Source: a virus. From it: a stretch of 17,381 bases of DNA. The stretch lies in the UHGV virus genome UHGV-0315696, one strand, 5' to 3'. Each line of letters opens with the position of its first letter. Position 1 is the stretch's first letter. A program made the position numbers and the translations under genes. This document shows positions 7,315-17,381 of the stretch, in pieces. The notes beneath the pieces are model-generated. The model was not told the origin of the DNA. It saw only the letters and a program-made list of their open reading frames with translations, and searched no databases.

Positions 7315-8076
7315 ATGACACAGTTTCAACTTGCATTAATCGCTAGAGAAGTTGATGGAGAAGTCATCCATCTTCGCACCAAAGACGGATACATCAATGC
7401 CACCGCGATGTGCAAGTCTGCGGGGAAGCTACTTGCTGACTATACACGACTAAAAACAACACAAGATTTTTTTGATGAATTATCACGCGATATGGGGATT
7501 CCCATATCGGAGTTAATTCAATCATTTAAAGGCGGAAGAGCAGAGAATCAAGGGACTTGGGTTCATCCAGACATCGCAATTAATTTAGCTCAGTGGCTAT
7601 CTCCAAAATTTGCAGTGCAAGTATCGAGATGGGTGCGTGAGTGGATGTCAGGTGAAAGAGCGCCTGCCGAACTCCCTATCCACCTTAAGCGGTATATGAC
7701 AAACCGAGGCAGAGTTCCTCATACGCACTTTTCTATGCTTAATGAACTGACGTTTAACTTGGTTGCGCCACTTGAACAGGCCGGATATACGCTGCCAGAA
7801 AAAATGGTCCCTGATATTTCAGAGGGTAGGGTTTTCTCGCAATGGCTCCGTGACAACCGGGGGGTTGAGCCGAAGACATTCCCAACATATAACCATGAGT
7901 ACCCAGATGGCCGGACATTCCCGGTACGTCTATACCCAAACGAATATCTTGCAGATTTCAAACAACACTTCAACGAAGTGTGGCTGCCTCAGTACGCTCC
8001 TAAATATTTTGCTGAACGAGACCAAAGGGCATTGACGTTGATTGAGAAAATCATGCTACCTGACCTTGATTCCTAA
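7315..8076 (+). CDS. KilA-N domain protein in the rexA/rexB slot; candidate repressor-linked exclusion/abortive-infection protein (BstA-like?)
   Basis: 253 aa with AGGA SD. The N-terminal region (...GYINATAMCKSAGKLLADY...WVHPDIAINLAQWLSPKFAVQVSRWVREW) resembles the KilA-N fold from memory. Co-oriented with cI, 31 bp downstream, followed by a strong terminator and then OL. Confidence 0.6.
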   Translation: MTQFQLALIAREVDGEVIHLRTKDGYINATAMCKSAGKLLADYTRLKTTQDFFDELSRDMGIPISELIQSFKGGRAENQGTWVHPDIAINLAQWLSPKFAVQVSRWVREWMSGERAPAELPIHLKRYMTNRGRVPHTHFSMLNELTFNLVAPLEQAGYTLPEKMVPDISEGRVFSQWLRDNRGVEPKTFPTYNHEYPDGRTFPVRLYPNEYLADFKQHFNEVWLPQYAPKYFAERDQRALTLIEKIMLPDLDS

Positions 8077-8084
8077 ATGTTATT

Positions 8085-8110
8085 CCCGGCCACAGAGCCG
8101 GGTTTTCTTT
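8085..8110 (+). terminator. Rho-independent terminator ending the cI/KilA-N transcript
   Basis: CCCGGC-CACAGA-GCCGGG followed by TTTTCTTT. Confidence 0.7.
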
Positions 8111-8116
8111 GCCTCA

Positions 8117-8125
8117 CCCCCCCCC
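8117..8125. repeat. Homopolymeric C9 tract in the intergenic region
   Basis: Read directly (CACCCCCCCCCACC). Confidence 0.8.
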
Positions 8126-8264
8126 ACCTAAAGACACATAACCAAATGTATTTATTGAAAAATAAATAGATACAACTCACTAAACATCGCAATTCAGATC
8201 TCTCGATCACCTCCCAAGCCACTCAACCCTGCAAAAAATAAATCCATATAAAAAACATACAGAT

Positions 8265-8327
8265 AACCATCTGCGGTGATAAATTATCTCTGGCGGTGTT
8301 GACATAAATACCACTGGCGGTGATACT
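8265..8327 (+). promoter_or_regulatory. Left operator OL3 (8265..8281), OL2 (8285..8301), OL1 (8309..8325) with pL (-35 TTGACA 8299..8304, -10 GATACT 8322..8327)
   Basis: ACATACAGATAACCATCTGCGGTGATAAATTATCTCTGGCGGTGTTGACATAAATACCACTGGCGGTGATACT is identical to lambda OL/pL as I recall it. Transcription is rightward on the + strand toward N. Confidence 0.9.
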
Positions 8328-8395
8328 AAACACATCAGCAGGACGCACTACTCACCAGGGCGGTGAATATACAACGATTCAAATATGAATCTACG

Positions 8396-8410
8396 GCGCT
8401 GACAAAGCGC
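8396..8410 (+). promoter_or_regulatory. nutL boxB, P22 type (GCGCU-GACAA-AGCGC)
   Basis: Perfect 5-bp stem with a GACAA loop, about 70 nt downstream of the pL start and upstream of the N-like gene. It matches the P22 boxB as I recall it. No clear boxA upstream. A second hairpin CCAAAG-TGAA-CTTTGG follows at 8416..8431. Confidence 0.55.
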
Positions 8411-8575
8411 AATAACCAAAGTGAACTTTGGGGTGTGGTGAAGGGTTCATGGACGGGAATATGTCGCACGTAAAGCGGCGAGGCCTGCGGGACTATTGCC
8501 GAATTGAAGTAGGCCGAAACAGGTCGAAATGGGTCTCCCACCTACCACACCACCAAAGTTCATCAGGAGGTCTAT

Positions 8576-8959
8576 ATGACACGCAGAACTCAGTTCAAAG
8601 GCAATTCACGTTCTCGTCGTCGTGAGCGTTTAAAGGCAAAGGCATTAGCTAACGGCGTGCTGGCCCGCGAAGAAGCAATAAGTTCAGAAGTATTACACCG
8701 CCCTACTCTAAGCAGAGCGCAGATTCAGGCTAAAGGTACTCACGAAACGCCTGAGCGCATAGAAGACGCTAAGCCAATTAAGTTCATGGCACAGGACGTG
8801 ATCTGGCAACAGAAAGAATACAGACGCAATCTGGAGCGAGCGGCCATTGTGTACGCGAATGAGTTTGGACATAAGCAACCAGAAACTGGTGTATGTCTTC
8901 CAAACGTAGCCATTTACGCGGCAGGCTACCGGAAATCCAAACAACTGACGGCGAGGTGA
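8576..8959 (+). CDS. N: N-like transcription antiterminator (P22 gp24-like; N-terminal arginine-rich motif)
   Basis: 127 aa with AGGAGG SD. ARM-like N-terminus (NSRSRRRERLKAKA). The C-terminus ...LPNVAIYAAGYRKSKQLTAR parallels my recollection of the P22 N C-terminus. First gene of the pL operon after a boxB. Confidence 0.65.
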   Translation: MTRRTQFKGNSRSRRRERLKAKALANGVLAREEAISSEVLHRPTLSRAQIQAKGTHETPERIEDAKPIKFMAQDVIWQQKEYRRNLERAAIVYANEFGHKQPETGVCLPNVAIYAAGYRKSKQLTAR

Positions 8960-8962
8960 TTG

Positions 8963-9676
8963 ATGACCACGCCTTCAGTTTTGCCGCAAAAATTATGGCG
9001 TCCGCTTGCAGAGATTAAAAACTTCGTTGAAAAAATGCCTGACGGCGTTCGCCTTACTGAGGTTACTAAAAAAGTTAAGACATTTGCCGAACTGTCAGGA
9101 AAGGAGAGAAACCAGCTCATCGATTTTATCGATAAACGGGAAAGCATCATTGTATTTAAGGTCAGAAAAGAAGGTTCTGGTAACGGAGTAACCTTTTTAC
9201 GCCACAAAAAATATGGATATCCCAAGCGGGAAGGAAACGTCACAATCATTAAGGACCTTCAATCAAAATTATGTACCAGATGCGGGCAGACAAAATCAGT
9301 CAATGATTTTTATTCAGATGCCAGCAAGCGTGACGGGAGAGCCATTTATTGCAAGAAGTGCGAATCTGCAATGAAACGCTCACGCAGAGAATGCAACAAA
9401 TTAATTCTGCAACAACAGGAACCTGAAGTGAATAACCTCAAAGCAGTTTCACCTTCACCAGAAATACTCAGAAAACAGGCTGAAGAATTGCTGAAAGCCG
9501 CCGAAATTGCGGAGAAAAAACGCCAGGAAGATGATGAATTCAACAAAAAACTTGCGCCCTTAAAACTTGAAATTCTTCAGGCCGCCGGAAAAATGCAGCT
9601 TAAACTGGACGAATTCATCGACTGTATGGATGAAATGAATAAAGCAGTTCAGAAGCTTAAAGAGCTGACCGCCTGA
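8963..9676 (+). CDS. Hypothetical early-left protein with a CxxC...CxxC zinc ribbon and a C-terminal coiled coil
   Basis: 237 aa with GAGG SD; the ATG at 8963 follows the N stop by 3 nt. CTRCG...CKKCE motif. No family recognised. Confidence 0.6.
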   Translation: MTTPSVLPQKLWRPLAEIKNFVEKMPDGVRLTEVTKKVKTFAELSGKERNQLIDFIDKRESIIVFKVRKEGSGNGVTFLRHKKYGYPKREGNVTIIKDLQSKLCTRCGQTKSVNDFYSDASKRDGRAIYCKKCESAMKRSRRECNKLILQQQEPEVNNLKAVSPSPEILRKQAEELLKAAEIAEKKRQEDDEFNKKLAPLKLEILQAAGKMQLKLDEFIDCMDEMNKAVQKLKELTA

Positions 9677-9707
9677 TATTAATAAATTGCAACTACCGGA
9701 GTTAACT

Positions 9708-10067
9708 ATGAACGAAACAGAACTGAAGCACATTATCGCCCTGCTTCTGGAAGATGCCAAACAGGTTTATCGACTTAGCCCAAATTCCGCAACGCTGACA
9801 CGCATCCAGATGGCAGAAAAAGCACTGAAACAGGATAATGAAAACAGCGCATCTGAAGTTGATGCTAATGGTGAAAATGAAGTAATAGAAATAAACAGCA
9901 ATATCAGCGACAGTTGCGTCGCTTACAGCCACCAAATAATTCGTGTAAGCGCAAGAATAATGGAATTGATGGCAAGTGAGCTTGAAAAGAACAACATCAA
10001 GCCCACTGATTGTTGTTTAAGAACCGTAATGAACGTTATTTATTACTCGATGTTCCGAAGTCGCTAA
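9708..10067 (+). CDS. Hypothetical early-left protein (119 aa)
   Basis: ATG at 9708 with GGAG SD (the track starts at 9687). No family recognised. The 3' end overlaps the convergent small ORF. Confidence 0.45.
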   Translation: MNETELKHIIALLLEDAKQVYRLSPNSATLTRIQMAEKALKQDNENSASEVDANGENEVIEINSNISDSCVAYSHQIIRVSARIMELMASELEKNNIKPTDCCLRTVMNVIYYSMFRSR

Positions 10068-10245
10068 CAGCGTCGAGTTTTTCATCAAAAAATGATTCAA
10101 ATACATCGTAAAATACGGCAATAGCACCGCCCTTATCTACCGCGGCAGGAACTGCCTTTTGAGGTATATCTTTCTCCCTGAATTGTGTGTTGTAGGTATC
10201 GACAGCCAGCCGCATCAGAAACATCACTTTTTCTTCTTGTGTCAT
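10036..10245 (-). CDS. Hypothetical small protein (69 aa) antisense to the pL operon
   Basis: Strong SD TAAGGAG 8-9 nt upstream of the ATG at 10245 on the - strand. Protein-like composition (MTQEEKVMFLMRLAVDTYNTQFREKDIPQ...). Confidence 0.45.
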   Translation of the reverse strand: MTQEEKVMFLMRLAVDTYNTQFREKDIPQKAVPAAVDKGGAIAVFYDVFESFFDEKLDAVSDFGTSSNK

Positions 10246-10465
10246 AAATTCACTCTCCTTACGGGGTTTGTAGTTGAGGAGTTCTCCACGGGTGAGGTGG
10301 AGATCGTGCGCCGGACACGGGTGAGTTCCGGCACTCTCAGTTTACTGAACAGACATTCCCCTGAAAGCCAGGGTACAACACGAAAGTGCACGGCGAAGAC
10401 TCTTTCCCATTGAAGGCTTGTCGTTAGATTTCTTCGACCGTGCGCTTCCGGTTGTGAATAACAAC

Positions 10466-10525
10466 ATTGCTGTGTGTAGCCCTTGGCGGACATCGGTTTG
10501 CCGATTGCTGATGTCCGCCCTTTTT
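10466..10525 (+). ncRNA. DicF-like sRNA candidate ending in a strong rho-independent terminator (hairpin 10485..10519, T5 10521..10525)
   Basis: TTGGCGGACATCGGTTTGCCGATTGCTGATGTCCGCCCTTTTT has the same architecture as, and substantial identity with, the DicF 3' portion as I recall it (TTGGCGGTATCAG...CTGCCGCCCTTTTT). Sits in a 440-bp noncoding stretch within the pL operon, as dicF does in Qin. The 5' boundary is a guess. Confidence 0.45.
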
Positions 10526-10701
10526 AAAGTGAATTTTGTGATGCGGTGAATGCGGCTATGCGCACGCGGAACAGTTAAACCGACAGGATGTCACGGAAAG
10601 TCATCGTCCCCTGACCCGGCGTTAGTTGTTAACTGGTTAACGTCACCTGGAGGTACCAGGCACCGCATCAACAAAGTTCATTTGTGAAAATGGAGATAAT
10701 T

Positions 10702-10923
10702 ATGATTGCTCATCACTTCGGAACTGATGAAATACCACGTCAGTGCGTGACGCCTGGCGATTATGTTCTTCATGAAGGTCGGACATATATCGCTTCAGCA
10801 AACAATATTGAAAAGAGAAAACTCTATATTCGTAACTTCACAACAAAAACATGCATTACCGACTGCATGATTAAAGTTTTCATCGGGCGCGATGGCTTAC
10901 CCGTAAAAGCAGCGTCGTTGTGA
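10702..10923 (+). CDS. Hypothetical small protein (73 aa)
   Basis: ATG at 10702 with GGAG SD 6 nt upstream (the track starts further upstream at 10684). Not similar to DicB as recalled. Confidence 0.4.
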
Positions 10924-11006
10924 CGAGTAATAAAATACACCTTCCATATCTGTAACAGACAAGCCGAAATAAAACCGCATTAATTATCAACCACGGAAAA
11001 ATAAAA

Positions 11007-11393
11007 ATGAAAGAACTTGCGCAAAATGAAATATTTTCCGAAACTAGTCCTGATGCAATAAATGAAGTCAAAGAAATTGCAGAACGCATCAGTAAAATAT
11101 GCAAAGAATACAAAATCGACTTTGTATTTTCTTTTTCAGTACTTACAGAAGTTGGAAATAACGAATATAAGGACAGTCGTTTTGTTTTATGTGGGTTAAA
11201 TGGCAAAACACCAAGCCCATATATTCATGCTGCATGTGAAGTCGTCAGAAGCAACATTGGAGCACAACAAATCCATACACTGGCGCAGGCTCTTGAGTTT
11301 GCAAGAGAAAATTCTGAGTGCGACTGCCCTGAATGCCAGCACGAAAAGGGAAAAACAACTCACAAAACAGCAAACCAGGCAACCTTCCACTGA
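11007..11393 (+). CDS. Hypothetical protein (128 aa) with a C-terminal CDCPECQHEKGK motif
   Basis: ORF with a weak RBS. No family recognised. Confidence 0.45.
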   Translation: MKELAQNEIFSETSPDAINEVKEIAERISKICKEYKIDFVFSFSVLTEVGNNEYKDSRFVLCGLNGKTPSPYIHAACEVVRSNIGAQQIHTLAQALEFARENSECDCPECQHEKGKTTHKTANQATFH

Positions 11394-11400
11394 AATAAAA

Positions 11401-11430
11401 ATCCGGCAGCGCAGGCTACCGGATTTCTCC
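11401..11430 (+). terminator. Terminator-like hairpin (imperfect stem, weak U-tract)
   Basis: ATCCGGCAG...CTACCGGAT followed by TTCTCC, just after the 11007..11393 ORF. Confidence 0.25.
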
Positions 11431-11500
11431 CTGCGTCACCGTATTCGGAGAAATCAGACAAAGGGCCGCTAATTCTAATCCAGCCAGAGATTTAAATACA

Positions 11501-13573
11501 ATGAGCGCTGATAAACAGACTTTTGCACTACACTGCGAAGCAAAAAACGATAAAGTCAGAAAACGCCTTGGCATCAAAGGCGGTTTTTTCTGGACCGAGG
11601 CCAGAAAACTTTCTGTCGCAGTTTCCCGCTGCATTGCAGCCATGGACGATGCAGGCTACGACGAGGATGATTTCAAAAAACCCGTTCGCGTAAATTTCCC
11701 CGTCGTGAATGACCTTCCACCGGAAGGCGTGTTTGATACTGAATTCTGCAACCGCTATGAAAAAGGCGGGGAAGATGGCATCACCATGATGGCTATATCC
11801 TTCAATGACAACATCAACGGTGAAGATGCCACAACTGCTGGCGATGACAACGATGACCCGGACGGAACTATTCCGGATGATGTGGAGAAAAGCGAATCCC
11901 CGGACAGCGACGATGACTGTTCTGAGTGTGAAATTCCCGTCGCCACTCTGAGCCTTACTCATCGCTTCCTTCACCTCTTCTTCTTCAGCAAGGATGAAGA
12001 TGGAAAATACCGGCATCACGCCACACCAGAACAACGCAATAACGTGATCCGTATGGAGATGGACACAGAGGACAGTTACCTTCAGAGCCTGCTTACTGCT
12101 GTGCGCGCCGCACATCATGAACTGGATAAACTGACGAACTATCACCTTAGTCGCCTGGCTGAATCTGTAGGGAAAGCATTCCCCCACTCTGCAAATCATC
12201 GCATCAGCCCGGCTGAATTCGACAAGTTCATTTCCACCTGGATGAAAACTGACTACCTTGATCAGGGCCTGCTGACAAAAGAATGGCAGAACGGAAATTA
12301 TGTTTCAGGCATTACCCGTACGCCTTCCGGTGCTAACGCTGGCGGCGGAAATCTTACCGATCGTGGTGAAGGATTCAAACATGATAAGACATCACTCGCA
12401 CGAGATGTAGCCACCGGCGTTCTGGCCCGTTCAATGGATGTGGATATTTATAACCTGCACCCAGCACACGCAAAACGCGTTGAAGAAATCGTGTCAGAGA
12501 ATAAGCCGCCCTTTTCTGTTTTTCGCGACAAATTTATCGCCATGCCCGGTGGGCTGGATTATTCCCGCGCCATTGTGGTGGCTTCCGTGAAAGAAGCACC
12601 AATCGGCATTGAGGCCATCCCGGCACGCGTGACTGAATATCTCAACAAAGTGTTGACCGAAACCGATCACGCTAACCCGGATCCGGAAATCGTGGAAATT
12701 GCCTGCGGTCGCTCATCAGCACCGATGCCGCAGCGCGGAACAGCAGAAGGAAAACATGGCGATGAAGAAAAGCAACAAGCATCGGACACAATGGCTAATG
12801 AACAGGCAGCGCCTGAATCAGTGGAAGAAATTCCAGTTAAACATAATGAGGACACGCAATCACTGGAAAATGTCTCATCTGTAGAAACGAAATACCAGGA
12901 ACTGAGGGAGGAACTCAATAAAGCCAGGGAAAACATCCCCCCAAAAAATCCAGTCGATGCCGACAAATTACTGGCTGCCTCGCGTGGAGAATTCGTTGAA
13001 GGCATCAGTAACCCTGCTGATCCGAAGTGGGTGAAGGGGATCCAGACTCGCGACACTGAGGACCAGAATCAGTCCAAAGTGGAACAAATTGCCCCAGAAG
13101 CGGGACAAAACAGCCCGGATACGCAACAAAACGGGTCAGAAGAGCAACAGCCAGGGCCAGTAGCGCAACCGGAGCTGGAAAAAAACTGCCGCGTCTGTGG
13201 TCAGACTGGCGGGGGTAACTGCCCTGACTGTAGTGCGGTAATGGGCGATAGCACTTACACAGAAACTTTTGGAGAAAATGACGCCGCTGATGGAGAAGAC
13301 TCAGCACAAACTGAGGAGAAGATCATTCAGGAAAACTCTGTTGATGCCGCTCAGGAGGGCGAAACCGTTGTTCAGAACGAGCCAGGCAGTGATACGTCCG
13401 GCGATGACGCCAATTCTGAGCCAGTAACTCTCGACTGGAAAAGACAGCTCGTGATTGCCGCCGTCTATGGTTTGTGCGCCAACCCCGCATGTATAGCCAC
13501 AGCGCCAGCAATCCCTGATATCGCCATCATGATTGCCAACAGGCTTGAAAATTTCGGAGGTGATAAATCATGA
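11501..13573 (+). CDS. Large acidic hypothetical protein (690 aa) with Asp/Glu-rich low-complexity segments and a [15 protein letters not shown] zinc-ribbon-like motif
   Basis: Uninterrupted 2.07-kb ORF in the pL operon whose stop overlaps the gam start (ATGA). The minus-strand ORFs inside it are shadows. No family recognised. Confidence 0.7.
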
Positions 13574-13866
13574 ATGCCTGGCTTATCCCCGATCGCATTG
13601 AAGAGCAGTCATGGGCACGACACTACCAGCAAATTGCCCGTGAAGAAACTGAAGCTGAGCTGGCAGACGACCTGGAAAAAGGTCTGCCCCAACACCTGTT
13701 TGAATCGCTATGCATCGATAATCTGCAACGTCACGGGGCCAGCAAAAAAGCTATTTCCCGTGCATTTGATGACGATGTCGATTTTCAGGAACGCATGGCA
13801 GAACACATCCGCTACATGGCTGAAACCATCGCCCGTCACCAAATTAATATTGATTCAGAGGTATAA
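13570..13866 (+). CDS. gam: Gam, host RecBCD inhibitor (short GamS-length form)
   Basis: 98 aa ([60 protein letters not shown]...), near-identical to the C-terminal 98 aa of lambda Gam from memory. Confidence 0.9.
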
Positions 13867-13871
13867 AACGG

Positions 13872-14657
13872 ATGAGTACAGCACTCGCAACGCTGGCAGG
13901 GAAGCTGGCTGAACGTGTCGGCATGGATTCTGTCGACCCACAGGAACTAATCACCACTCTTCGCCAGACGGCATTTAAAGGTGATGCCAGCGATGCGCAA
14001 TTTATCGCATTGTTGATCGTCGCCAACCAGTACGGCCTTAATCCCTGGACGAAAGAAATTTACGCCTTCCCTGACAAGCAGAACGGCATCGTTCCGGTGG
14101 TTGGCGTTGATGGCTGGTCCCGCATTATCAATGAAAACCAGCAGTTTGATGGCATGGACTTTGAGCAGGACAATGAGTCCTGTACATGCCGGATTTACCG
14201 CAAAGATCGCAATCACCCGATCTGCGTTACCGAGTGGATGGATGAATGTCGCCGCGCACCATTCAAAACCCGCGAAGGCAGAGAAATCACCGGACCGTGG
14301 CAGTCGCATCCCAAACGGATGTTACGGCACAAAGCCATGATTCAGTGTGCTCGCCTGGCCTTCGGATTTGCTGGCATCTATGACAAGGATGAAGCCGAGC
14401 GTATTGTCGAAAATACTGCATATACTACAGAACGTCAGCCGGAACACGACATCACCCCGGTTAACGAAGAAACCATGTCGGAAATTAACGCCCTTCTTAC
14501 TTCCATGGAAAAAACGTGGGATGACGACCTGTTGCCGCTCTGTTCCCAGATTTTTCGCCGCAACATTTACACATCTTCAGAACTAACACAGGCTGAAGCT
14601 GTGAAGGTTCTTGGATTCCTGAAACAGAAAGTCACAGAGCAGAAGGTAGCAGCATGA
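13872..14657 (+). CDS. bet: Bet (Red-beta) single-strand annealing recombinase
   Basis: 261 aa, near-identical to lambda Bet from memory ([66 protein letters not shown]...). Confidence 0.95.
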
Positions 14658-15334
14658 CACCGGACATTATCCTGCAACGTACAGGGATCGACGTGAGAGC
14701 TGTCGAACAGGGGGATGATGCGTGGCACAAATTACGGCTCGGCGTCATCACCGCTTCAGAAGTTCACAACGTGATAGCAAAACCCCGCTCAGGAAAGAAA
14801 TGGCCTGACATGAAAATGTCCTACTTCCACACTCTGCTGGCTGAGGTCTGCACGGGTGTGGCCCCGGAAGTTAACGCCAAAGCCCTGGCATGGGGAAAAC
14901 AGTACGAGAACGACGCCAGAGCTCTGTTTGAGTTTACTTCCGGCGTGAATGTTACTGAATCCCCGATCATCTATCGTGACGAAAGTATGCGTACAGCCTG
15001 CTCTCCCGATGGTTTATGCAGTGACGGTAAAGGCCTTGAGCTGAAATGTCCGTTTACCTCCCGGGATTTCATGAAATTCCGGCTCGGTGGTTTCGAGGCA
15101 ATAAAATCAGCTTACATGGCCCAGGTGCAATTCAGCATGTGGGCGACGCGAAAAGATGCCTGGTACTTTGCCAACTATGACCCACGTATGAAGCGTGAAG
15201 GCCTGCATTATGTCGTGGTCGAGCGGGATGAAAAATACATGGCTGGTTTTGACGAAATGGTGCCAGAGTTCATCGAAAAAATGGACGAGGCACTGGCTGA
15301 AATTGGTTTTGTATTTGGGGAGCAATGGCGATAG
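14654..15334 (+). CDS. exo: Exo (Red-alpha) 5'-3' exonuclease
   Basis: 226 aa matching lambda Exo from memory ([65 protein letters not shown]...). ATGA overlap with bet, as in lambda. Confidence 0.95.
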
Positions 15335-15372
15335 CCGTAGCAACGAGGTGCAAATGATATGACAGTTAAGGA

Positions 15373-15633
15373 ATGCTACCTGTGTTCGTTCTGATCCAGC
15401 GCGGGCAGTCCTTCGTCGACGCCAACAACTATCCGGTTGAAGTCTGCAAAATCACTCTGACGCAGGTAATCTTCCGCAGGCTGGATGGGAGAACCAGAGC
15501 CGCTTCAATTAGCGCATTTAATGCAGAATTTGAGCGAATCGATCACAACGAACTACACATGATTAAAGCAGAAATTGAGAAGGAAAAGCATATTGCCAGC
15601 CTTCGAAAAATGCGCCGCATATCAATCAACTGA
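15373..15633 (+). CDS. Hypothetical small protein (86 aa)
   Basis: ORF between exo and xis with a poor RBS; its stop is immediately followed by a terminator hairpin. Low confidence that it is translated. Confidence 0.3.
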   Translation: MLPVFVLIQRGQSFVDANNYPVEVCKITLTQVIFRRLDGRTRAASISAFNAEFERIDHNELHMIKAEIEKEKHIASLRKMRRISIN

Positions 15634-15635
15634 CA

Positions 15636-15656
15636 ACCGCCTTCGGGCGGTTTTTA
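15636..15656 (+). terminator. Rho-independent terminator
   Basis: ACCGCC-TTCG-GGCGGT followed by TTTTT. Confidence 0.55.
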
Positions 15657-15667
15657 ATGGCGAAAAT

Positions 15668-16039
15668 ATGGATTCACACAGTATCACCCTCAAAGAGGCC
15701 TGTAAGTTTCTCAAGATATCAAGGCCAACAGCTGTTAACTGGATACGAACGGGCCGACTACAGGCAACCCGAAAAAATTCTTCCGGTAAAAGATCACCTT
15801 ATCTCACAACCCGGCAAGCCTGCATTGCAGCACTTCATTCACCGCTGCATACTGTCCAGGTGAGCGCGGGTGATGGCATAACAGAGGAAAGAAAATGTCA
15901 CTCTTCCGCAGAGGTGAAATATGGTACGCCTCGTACTCGCTCCCGGGCGGGAAGCGAATTAAGGAGTCTCTTGGCACAAAGGACAAGCGGCAAGCTCAGG
16001 AGTTGCACGACAAGCGAAAAGCAGAACTCTGGCGAGTAG
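15668..16039 (+). CDS. xis: Excisionase-like protein; 3' end uncertain, reads about 145 nt into int
   Basis: ATG at 15668 directly upstream of int. The N-terminal region ([31 protein letters not shown]) resembles excisionase/AlpA-type HTH proteins. The C-terminal part translates int sequence in another frame and looks non-protein-like. Confidence 0.45.
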
Positions 16040-17058
16040 ACAGACTGGGGGATATGCCAGATGTCACTTTCGAAGAAGCCTGCCTGAGATGGCTTGAGGA
16101 AAAAGCCGACAAGAAATCCATCGATTCCGATAAATCCAGAATCGCATTCTGGATTGAGCATTTCGAGGGAATAAGGATTAAGGATATATCGGAGGCAATG
16201 ATCTACTCAGTTATCAGCAAAGCGTATAACCGAAAAACAAAGGAGAGATGGAAGTTGCAGGTGGAGGCTGCATTAAGAAAAGGGAAAGAACCACCAGCCT
16301 ATATACCTAAATCGGTGAGCACGCAAACAAAAGCAACACACCTGGCAATGATCAAGGCTATTCTGCGCGCCGCAGAGCGAGACTGGAAATGGCTTGAAAA
16401 AGCACCTGTAATCAAAATACCTGCCGTAAAAAACAAACGCGTGAGATGGCTGGAAAAAGAAGAAGCCAGGAGACTCATTGATGCATGTTCTGATCCCCTG
16501 AAATCTGTAGTTAAATTTGCACTGGCAACTGGCCTGAGGAGATCAAACATTATTAATCTGGAGTGGCAACAAATCGATATGCAGCGACGTGTTGCCTGGG
16601 TAAACCCTGAAGACAGTAAGTCAAACCGCGCTATTGGGGTCGCACTGAATGACACTGCCTGCAAGGTGTTGCGTGATCAAATAGGCAAACATCACCGCTG
16701 GGTGTTTGTTTATACCACTGCTGCCAGAAGGCCTGACGGGACAATGACACCAAGCATCAGAAAGATGCGCCTGGACTATAACACATCGTGGTTAACAGCA
16801 TGTCGTCGGGCAGGAATTGAAAATTTCCGTTTTCATGACCTCCGCCATACCTGGGCCAGTTGGTTAATTCAGTCAGGTGTACCACTGTCAGTACTTCAGG
16901 AAATGGGCGGCTGGGAGTCTATCGAAATGGTGCGTAGGTACGCACACCTTGCACCTAATCATTTGACAGAGCACGCGAGGAAAATTGACGACATATTGGG
17001 TGACGATGTCCCAAATTTGTCCCACCCTGAGGTTTTTGAGGATGCAAAGAAAGCATAA
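15895..17058 (+). CDS. int: Tyrosine site-specific integrase
   Basis: 387 aa with GAGGAAAG SD. Catalytic-domain motifs are visible ([11 protein letters not shown] with H-x-x-R; VRRYAHL with the Tyr nucleophile). Not lambda Int. Confidence 0.9.
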
Positions 17059-17095
17059 GTAATTGAATTAGAATGAGTTAAGCTCACGCTTTCAA

Positions 17096-17312
17096 GTGGT
17101 GAGCAACAACTTTAAAGATCTTGGCCCGGAAGTCAGTTTCCGCCGTATTTATGAATATGCTGGCGGCGACTGGCAGGAAGATAATGGCGTCTGGCACCAG
17201 AACGTGTTCGCTTATTATCTCTCCATCTCCTGTAACCATTGCGATGACCCAGCATGTACAAAAGTCTGCCCCAGCGGCGCAATGCATAAGCGTGAAGATG
17301 GCTTTGTGGTGT
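17096..17312 (+). pseudogene. 5'-truncated fragment of a dmsB/ynfG-family iron-sulfur subunit gene (about codons 27-97); presumed attachment-site junction
   Basis: The translation [66 protein letters not shown] matches E. coli DmsB/YnfG from memory. An in-frame stop lies just upstream (17069..17071), so the first Cys cluster is missing. Homology ends abruptly after 17312. Confidence 0.6.
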
Positions 17313-17381
17313 CGGCCAGCTCATCGCCGGAGATCAGCATGATATTGCCCTGAATGGGATTGCCCTCCGGGGCACCGTAGC

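Follow-up and report, generated by a model that had tools for sequence, protein, structure and literature searches.

The right-hand end of the window (the whole stretch that was analysed, 17,381 nt of the UHGV virus genome UHGV-0315696) very probably combines a prophage integrated in the Escherichia coli gene ynfG across the 7-bp core TTTAAAG with a technical chimera at 17311/17312. On the biological side, the integrase would recombine the phage site attP (...GGTGAGCAACAAC-TTTAAAG-TTGGTTACG...) with attB in ynfG (...GCAAAGAT-TTTAAAG-ATCTTGGCC...) across the 7-bp overlap. On the technical side, the window would switch, 200 bases into ynfG, to 70 bases from Faecalibacterium, a gut Firmicute, and this terminal chimera would stem either from a read that is itself chimeric or from a wrong join made when a human-gut metagenome was assembled.

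Judged by comparison with complete genomes and phage records, the window covers the early-left arm of an E. coli prophage of lambdoid (933W/Stx-phage-like) type and ends at the int-proximal chromosome junction. Over positions 1–17311 the window is matched at 99.4% by the three complete E. coli genomes G1/2, G8 and G6/7 and, because they span this whole interval, its left end is not chimeric. Escherichia phage PhiR5_2 matches the window over 453–17108 with 99.1% identity, and the phages 75/02 and POCJ13 show 93% identity across 62% of the window. The limit to which matches extend leftward varies by relative (position 1, 453, or, for the Shigella Stx phages, 3340), which is the usual lambdoid mosaicism of the replication and immunity region. 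Further along the arm, at 11501–15334, a gene for a RecE-family exonuclease VIII (690 aa) sits directly upstream of gam, bet (RecT-family) and a lambda-exo/YqaJ gene; two recombination exonucleases are present within this one operon, and related prophages are annotated likewise.

On the chromosomal side of the junction, positions 17111–17311 (plus strand) correspond to codons 27–93 (F27–V93) of E. coli ynfG, the 5' part of the int-proximal remnant of that gene, with 199 of 201 nt identical to K-12 and a match to Pfam Fer4_11. The gene ynfG encodes the Fe-S subunit of YnfEFGH, a selenate-reductase paralogue of DmsABC. An earlier note, made from the letters of the sequence, had described a DmsB/YnfG-like fragment of about codons 27–97 lying directly downstream of int, in a reading frame closed by an upstream stop and opened by a GTG, and missing its first Cys cluster. 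Most of this description was borne out: int ends at 17058 and ynfG homology starts at 17111, the ynfG frame is closed by a TAG at 17069–17071 and its next start codon is the GTG at 17096 (both within the phage-derived arm), and the first Cys group of the K-12 translation, C14-x2-C17-x2-C20-x3-C24, is absent from the int-proximal remnant, which lacks all four of these cysteines. The fragment is indeed derived from ynfG from codon 27 onward; its end, however, falls at codon 93 (17311) and not at codon 97. When the alignment to both dmsB and ynfG proposed in the earlier note was run, 2 mismatches to K-12 ynfG versus 31 to dmsB (170/201 identical) were counted in the 201 ungapped nucleotides, and the fragment is therefore ynfG rather than dmsB.

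Beyond 17311, resemblance to E. coli is lost. In 5,337 E. coli genomes, every megablast match ends at this position, and real E. coli genomes carry on with GTTGATGAAGATGTTTGTATCGGCTGCCGCTAC (VDEDVCIGCRY), a continuation that begins GTTGATGAAGATG and in which ynfG goes on. The departure from the expected continuation that had been placed at about 17312 is thus located between 17311 and 17312, and the refuting case named in the earlier note, that the break is continuous host sequence in the real genome, does not hold, as E. coli genomes run on with ynfG. The 70-nt tail (17312–17381) does not belong with the remainder of the window and corresponds, on the minus strand, to a stretch from the interior of a Faecalibacterium ORF that is uncharacterised. 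A degenerate pattern for 11 minus-strand codons of the tail returned 21 loci in a one-genome-per-species collection, nearly all of them Faecalibacterium, and nucleotide identity of the tail to 21 genome assemblies was 91–96%. F. prausnitzii ATCC 27768 carries the match midway through an ORF of 236 aa (L021 1425..2135) that has no Pfam family and lies antisense to ynfG. A 30-mer of the tail is present in 79 metagenome contigs, every source-named one of which is a human-gut assembly; the whole 70-mer is exact in 74 of the 79, and in those 74 it is preceded by GTGCCTCGGTCTTTGCGGTG, the Faecalibacterium continuation. The tail has a G+C content of 61%, versus 50% for the ynfG part.

Searches elsewhere for the tail were negative. 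No match was obtained in 5,426 complete E. coli genomes (megablast and blastn, 11-base words, E ≤ 10), matches to 50,697 phage records and 72,556 plasmids stayed at chance level, and an exact 36-mer from the tail was absent from IMG/VR. None of the 79 metagenome contigs and none of the 21 genomes had ynfG beside the tail. A terminal repeat or an inversion was ruled out as the source of the tail, as no second copy occurs within the window. The break and the tail are not chance, because exact copies of the 70-mer turn up in 74 independent contigs and the ynfG match has an E-value of 0.

The 17311/17312 join would be explained most simply by a chimera of the metagenome assembly or of the library, formed within a single read or by a false join at a contig tip. 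It is called as such because the partners are gut organisms of different phyla, a 4-bp microhomology is present at the join, the join lies 70 bases from the end, and the junction occurs in no other searched sequence (neither IMG/VR nor the metagenome collection contains the junction 32-mer). When the window, E. coli and Faecalibacterium are aligned with one another, the microhomology, GGTG, falls at 17308–17311, with 9 of the 10 bases over 17302–17311 common to both partners, so that exact identity to Faecalibacterium extends in the window over 17308–17381 (74 nt). Tested as a chimera, the sequence to the left is 99–100% E. coli, while that to the right is 100% identical to the 74 gut contigs, in Faecalibacterium context. 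The ends of chimeric short-read metagenome contigs have the same form, with unrelated genomes from one habitat joined at a microhomology of a few bases and a foreign part of read or k-mer size (here 70–74 nt) at the extreme end, and a junction unique to the window is, as judged by comparison, likewise as in such contig ends. We know of no assembler default k-mer size to which 74 nt corresponds, which counts against an artefact.

Several further observations were made around the switch point. The paralogy of ynfG and dmsB was considered for the contig break and set aside as a sufficient cause, the longest exact run shared by the two genes being 26 nt and located away from the break. In the human-gut contig ENA OXEX01006196 (positions 1–60), an untrimmed Nextera adapter (...CTCGTGGGCTCGGAGATGTGTATAAGAGACAG) is followed directly by GTGTCGGCCAGC..., so that this read starts 3 nt from the position at which the window switches to Faecalibacterium sequence, and contig ENA OQIP01000632 starts with CGGCCAGC.... 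The starting of contigs near the switch point may reflect a tagmentation hot spot or may be coincidence.

Were the join genuine, Faecalibacterium DNA would have entered E. coli ynfG (or the reverse) by illegitimate recombination at the microhomology, and Firmicute DNA would stand in an E. coli chromosome next to the end of a prophage. Such an in vivo, inter-phylum event is considered very improbable. Both the shared GGTG and the 9 of 10 common bases at the join would also be expected from illegitimate recombination, and E. coli and Faecalibacterium do live together in the human gut; yet the tail occurs in 0 of the 5,426 complete E. coli genomes, neither the 79 contigs nor the 21 genomes place ynfG next to it, and the junction was found nowhere else. 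Further, the foreign part amounts to only 70 bases at the extreme end and shows 100% identity with an allele common in Faecalibacterium, as a co-assembled read would give.

With the join read as a chimera, its practical consequence is one of quality control: 17312–17381 is contaminating Faecalibacterium DNA, and trimming is advised. Gene calls, att-site predictions and host assignments that use the last 70 bases would be wrong, including the 85-aa ORF at 17096–17353 (plus strand). This ORF, for whose product an exact look-up returned no gene on record, is composed of the phage-supplied GTG-VSNN, YnfG residues 27–93 and 14 codons that run antisense through Faecalibacterium DNA, and it is an artefact.

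The abrupt loss of homology inside a gene and close to an integrase could also suggest that the 17312 break is itself the att core, or marks the boundary of a further mobile element (another prophage or an IS) in ynfG, a reading with next to no remaining probability. The core maps 200 bases upstream, to 17111–17117, and the tail is unmatched in the phage records, the plasmids and the E. coli genomes and is internal to a Faecalibacterium ORF, with neither a repeat nor an element end, such that core mapping and tail searches together refute this reading. Among the three origins that the earlier note had offered for the break (att core, further rearrangement or assembly join), the first fails on the position of the core and the second on a tail that is not of E. 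coli, phage or plasmid origin, while the assembly join agrees with the Faecalibacterium-type tail.

The core was placed by a four-way comparison of the K-12 attB, the int-distal and int-proximal junctions of the lysogen UPEC-245U, and the attP of the circular record of phage 75/02. The attB of K-12 reads ...GGCGTGCAAAGAT TTTAAAG ATCTTGGCCCGG..., the int-distal junction ...GGCGTGCAAAGAT TTTAAAG TTGGTTACGTATCG... and the int-proximal junction, which is that of the window, ...GGTGAGCAACAAC TTTAAAG ATCTTGGCCCGG.... Shigella phage 75/02 Stx, deposited in GenBank as a circular record, has the attP ...AGCAACAAC TTTAAAG TTGGTTACGTATCG..., as predicted from the junctions. The other prophage end and a common core, which the earlier note had recommended looking for, were accordingly both found, the former as the int-distal junction of UPEC-245U. 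TTTAAAG (17111–17117, plus strand) is the sole stretch identical in attB, both junctions and attP, and on this comparison the core (overlap region) can be stated precisely as these 7 bp, between ynfG codons 27 and 29. In attB, the sequence itself displays a dyad, CAAAGAT | TTTAAAG | ATCTTGG. Two core-type sites around a 7-bp overlap are the usual layout for lambda-type tyrosine recombinases, and we infer that the attB dyad works as two such sites flanking the overlap.

Between the int stop and the core, 17059–17110 (plus strand) is the phage-derived attP arm, to which PhiR5_2, 75/02 and POCJ13 match as far as 17108/17109. Some integrative elements bear a copy of the gene end that they replace. 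The phage could on this pattern carry its own dmsB/ynfG-like segment (a moron or a replacement gene end), an idea that finds a trace of resemblance in the arm just left of the core, where 9 of 15 scattered bases (17096–17110) equal K-12 ynfG, but that is as good as eliminated: no ynfG match exists left of 17111 beyond these bases, the three phage records leave the window at 17108/17109 and pass into the other attP arm and not into ynfG, the fragment has 99% identity to the ynfG of the chromosome and in lysogens precedes ynfH-dmsD-clcB, ordered as in the chromosome, and the idea is refuted by attP as it stands in the circular 75/02 record. Where the earlier note had the phage either integrating in an Fe-S subunit gene or carrying a segment of one, integration in ynfG therefore stands and the carried segment falls, on both the 9/15 arm and the circular attP.

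A motif count on the reconstructed attP located ATGCAAAG three times, at -69, +80 and +100 from the core. One copy (17042–17049, plus strand) is in the int-side arm, within the 3' end of int, and two are in the other arm, outside the window, where they form the direct repeat ATGCAAAGCTTTGT (L025 ~13400–13470, minus strand). These copies may be arm-type Int binding sites.

The genes required of a lambda-type system are found beside the site. A tyrosine-recombinase integrase of 387 aa is encoded at 15895–17058 on the plus strand (PF00589, E 1.5e-45, profile positions 1–171 of 172; phrog_10426 and phrog_1, 'integrase') and is transcribed toward the att site, its TAA stop occupying 17056–17058. 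The motifs HDLRHT (HxxR) and RRYAHL can be read in Int at 16834–16950, and we take these to be the HxxR catalytic motif and the catalytic Tyr motif of the family, respectively. The exact Int protein was found in 5,236 blocks of a public gene collection, with an identical right flank at 10 of the 10 places read. Upstream, and overlapping the start of int by 145 bases, is an excisionase gene, xis, of 123 aa (15668–16039, plus strand; phrog_2907, E 9.7e-44, residues 1–116 against profile positions 2–117 of 117; Pfam HTH_17, 5.5e-09). An ORF at 15657–15863 was rejected as xis, having no Pfam match and a non-genic-looking translation, with the true xis located in another frame. In the prophage of UPEC-245U, a close relative, PGAP marks only a 66-bp 'HTH, incomplete' pseudogene at the place of xis, and in some lysogens the gene may be under-annotated or decayed. 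Taken together, a catalytic domain, a cognate xis beside int and a common core make up what is, as predicted from sequence, a complete lambda-type tyrosine-integrase integration module. Occupied and empty ynfG sites both occur across genomes and circular or free phage records have been deposited, by which integration and excision activity is implied.

For the host gene, insertion breaks the reading frame after codon 28 of ynfG, leaving a promoter-proximal stub that would encode a peptide of 37 residues, MTTQYGFFIDSSRCTGCKTCELACKDFKVGYVSFKIN, and an int-proximal remnant that lies ~63 kb from the ynfE promoter. The in-frame, phage-supplied GTG of this remnant has no purine-rich Shine-Dalgarno sequence upstream (GCTCACGCTTTCAA-GTG). 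Some gene callers predict an ORF of 183–184 aa in lysogens that matches the remnant and continues to the ynfG stop codon, and PGAP annotates the remnant in lysogens as a pseudogene ('ynfG, incomplete, missing N-terminus'). YnfG is probably non-functional in lysogens, and ynfH and dmsD, as members of the ynfEFGH-dmsD operon, are likely to be uncoupled from the ynfE promoter, with their expression affected.

Across 5,426 complete E. coli genomes, the int-ynfG junction was detected in 89, including the O104:H4 outbreak lineage, using a 482-base probe over the int-ynfG boundary at a coverage of at least 80%. In the UPEC-245U lysogen, the arrangement is ynfE-ynfF-[84-bp ynfG stub]-prophage (~63 kb)-int-[540-bp ynfG remnant]-ynfH-dmsD-clcB, with both pieces of ynfG annotated as pseudogenes. 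The ynfE-ynfF-ynfG-ynfH-dmsD context is that of lysogens with an identical junction, the ynfG of the window itself being cut off at 17311. Phage 75/02 has been reported to integrate in the ynfG homologue, sharing this site with the Stx1 phage POCJ13 (PMC5447701), and a 62.5-kb Stx1a prophage of the O113:H4 strain RM10410 has ynfG at both ends (PMC10562709). The ynfG att site is thus already known, and the window re-observes an established lambdoid/Stx-phage attachment site. As the site was established, the result has little biological weight, and the gain is the exact core, TTTAAAG (17111–17117).

Compared with characterised phages, the prophage of the window is most readily placed alongside PhiR5_2, 75/02 and POCJ13, with which it has a common int/xis module and early region and, with the core TTTAAAG, an identical attP. 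Relative to 75/02 and POCJ13, the window is mosaic in its cI-side and replication region (1–3340). Both of these are Stx phages, whereas the window stops short of the Q/late region, the expected location of stx; in the UPEC-245U prophage, a close relative, no stx is annotated. The likeness to the Int/Xis system of lambda comprises a PF00589 recombinase, an adjacent excisionase, an int gene directed toward the att site, an identical 7-bp overlap and repeated arm motifs, with the overlap in attB flanked here by imperfect inverted core-type sites. In contrast to lambda, whose target is an intergenic site between gal and bio, the site used here is inside a coding gene, which is destroyed, and the core sequence also differs.
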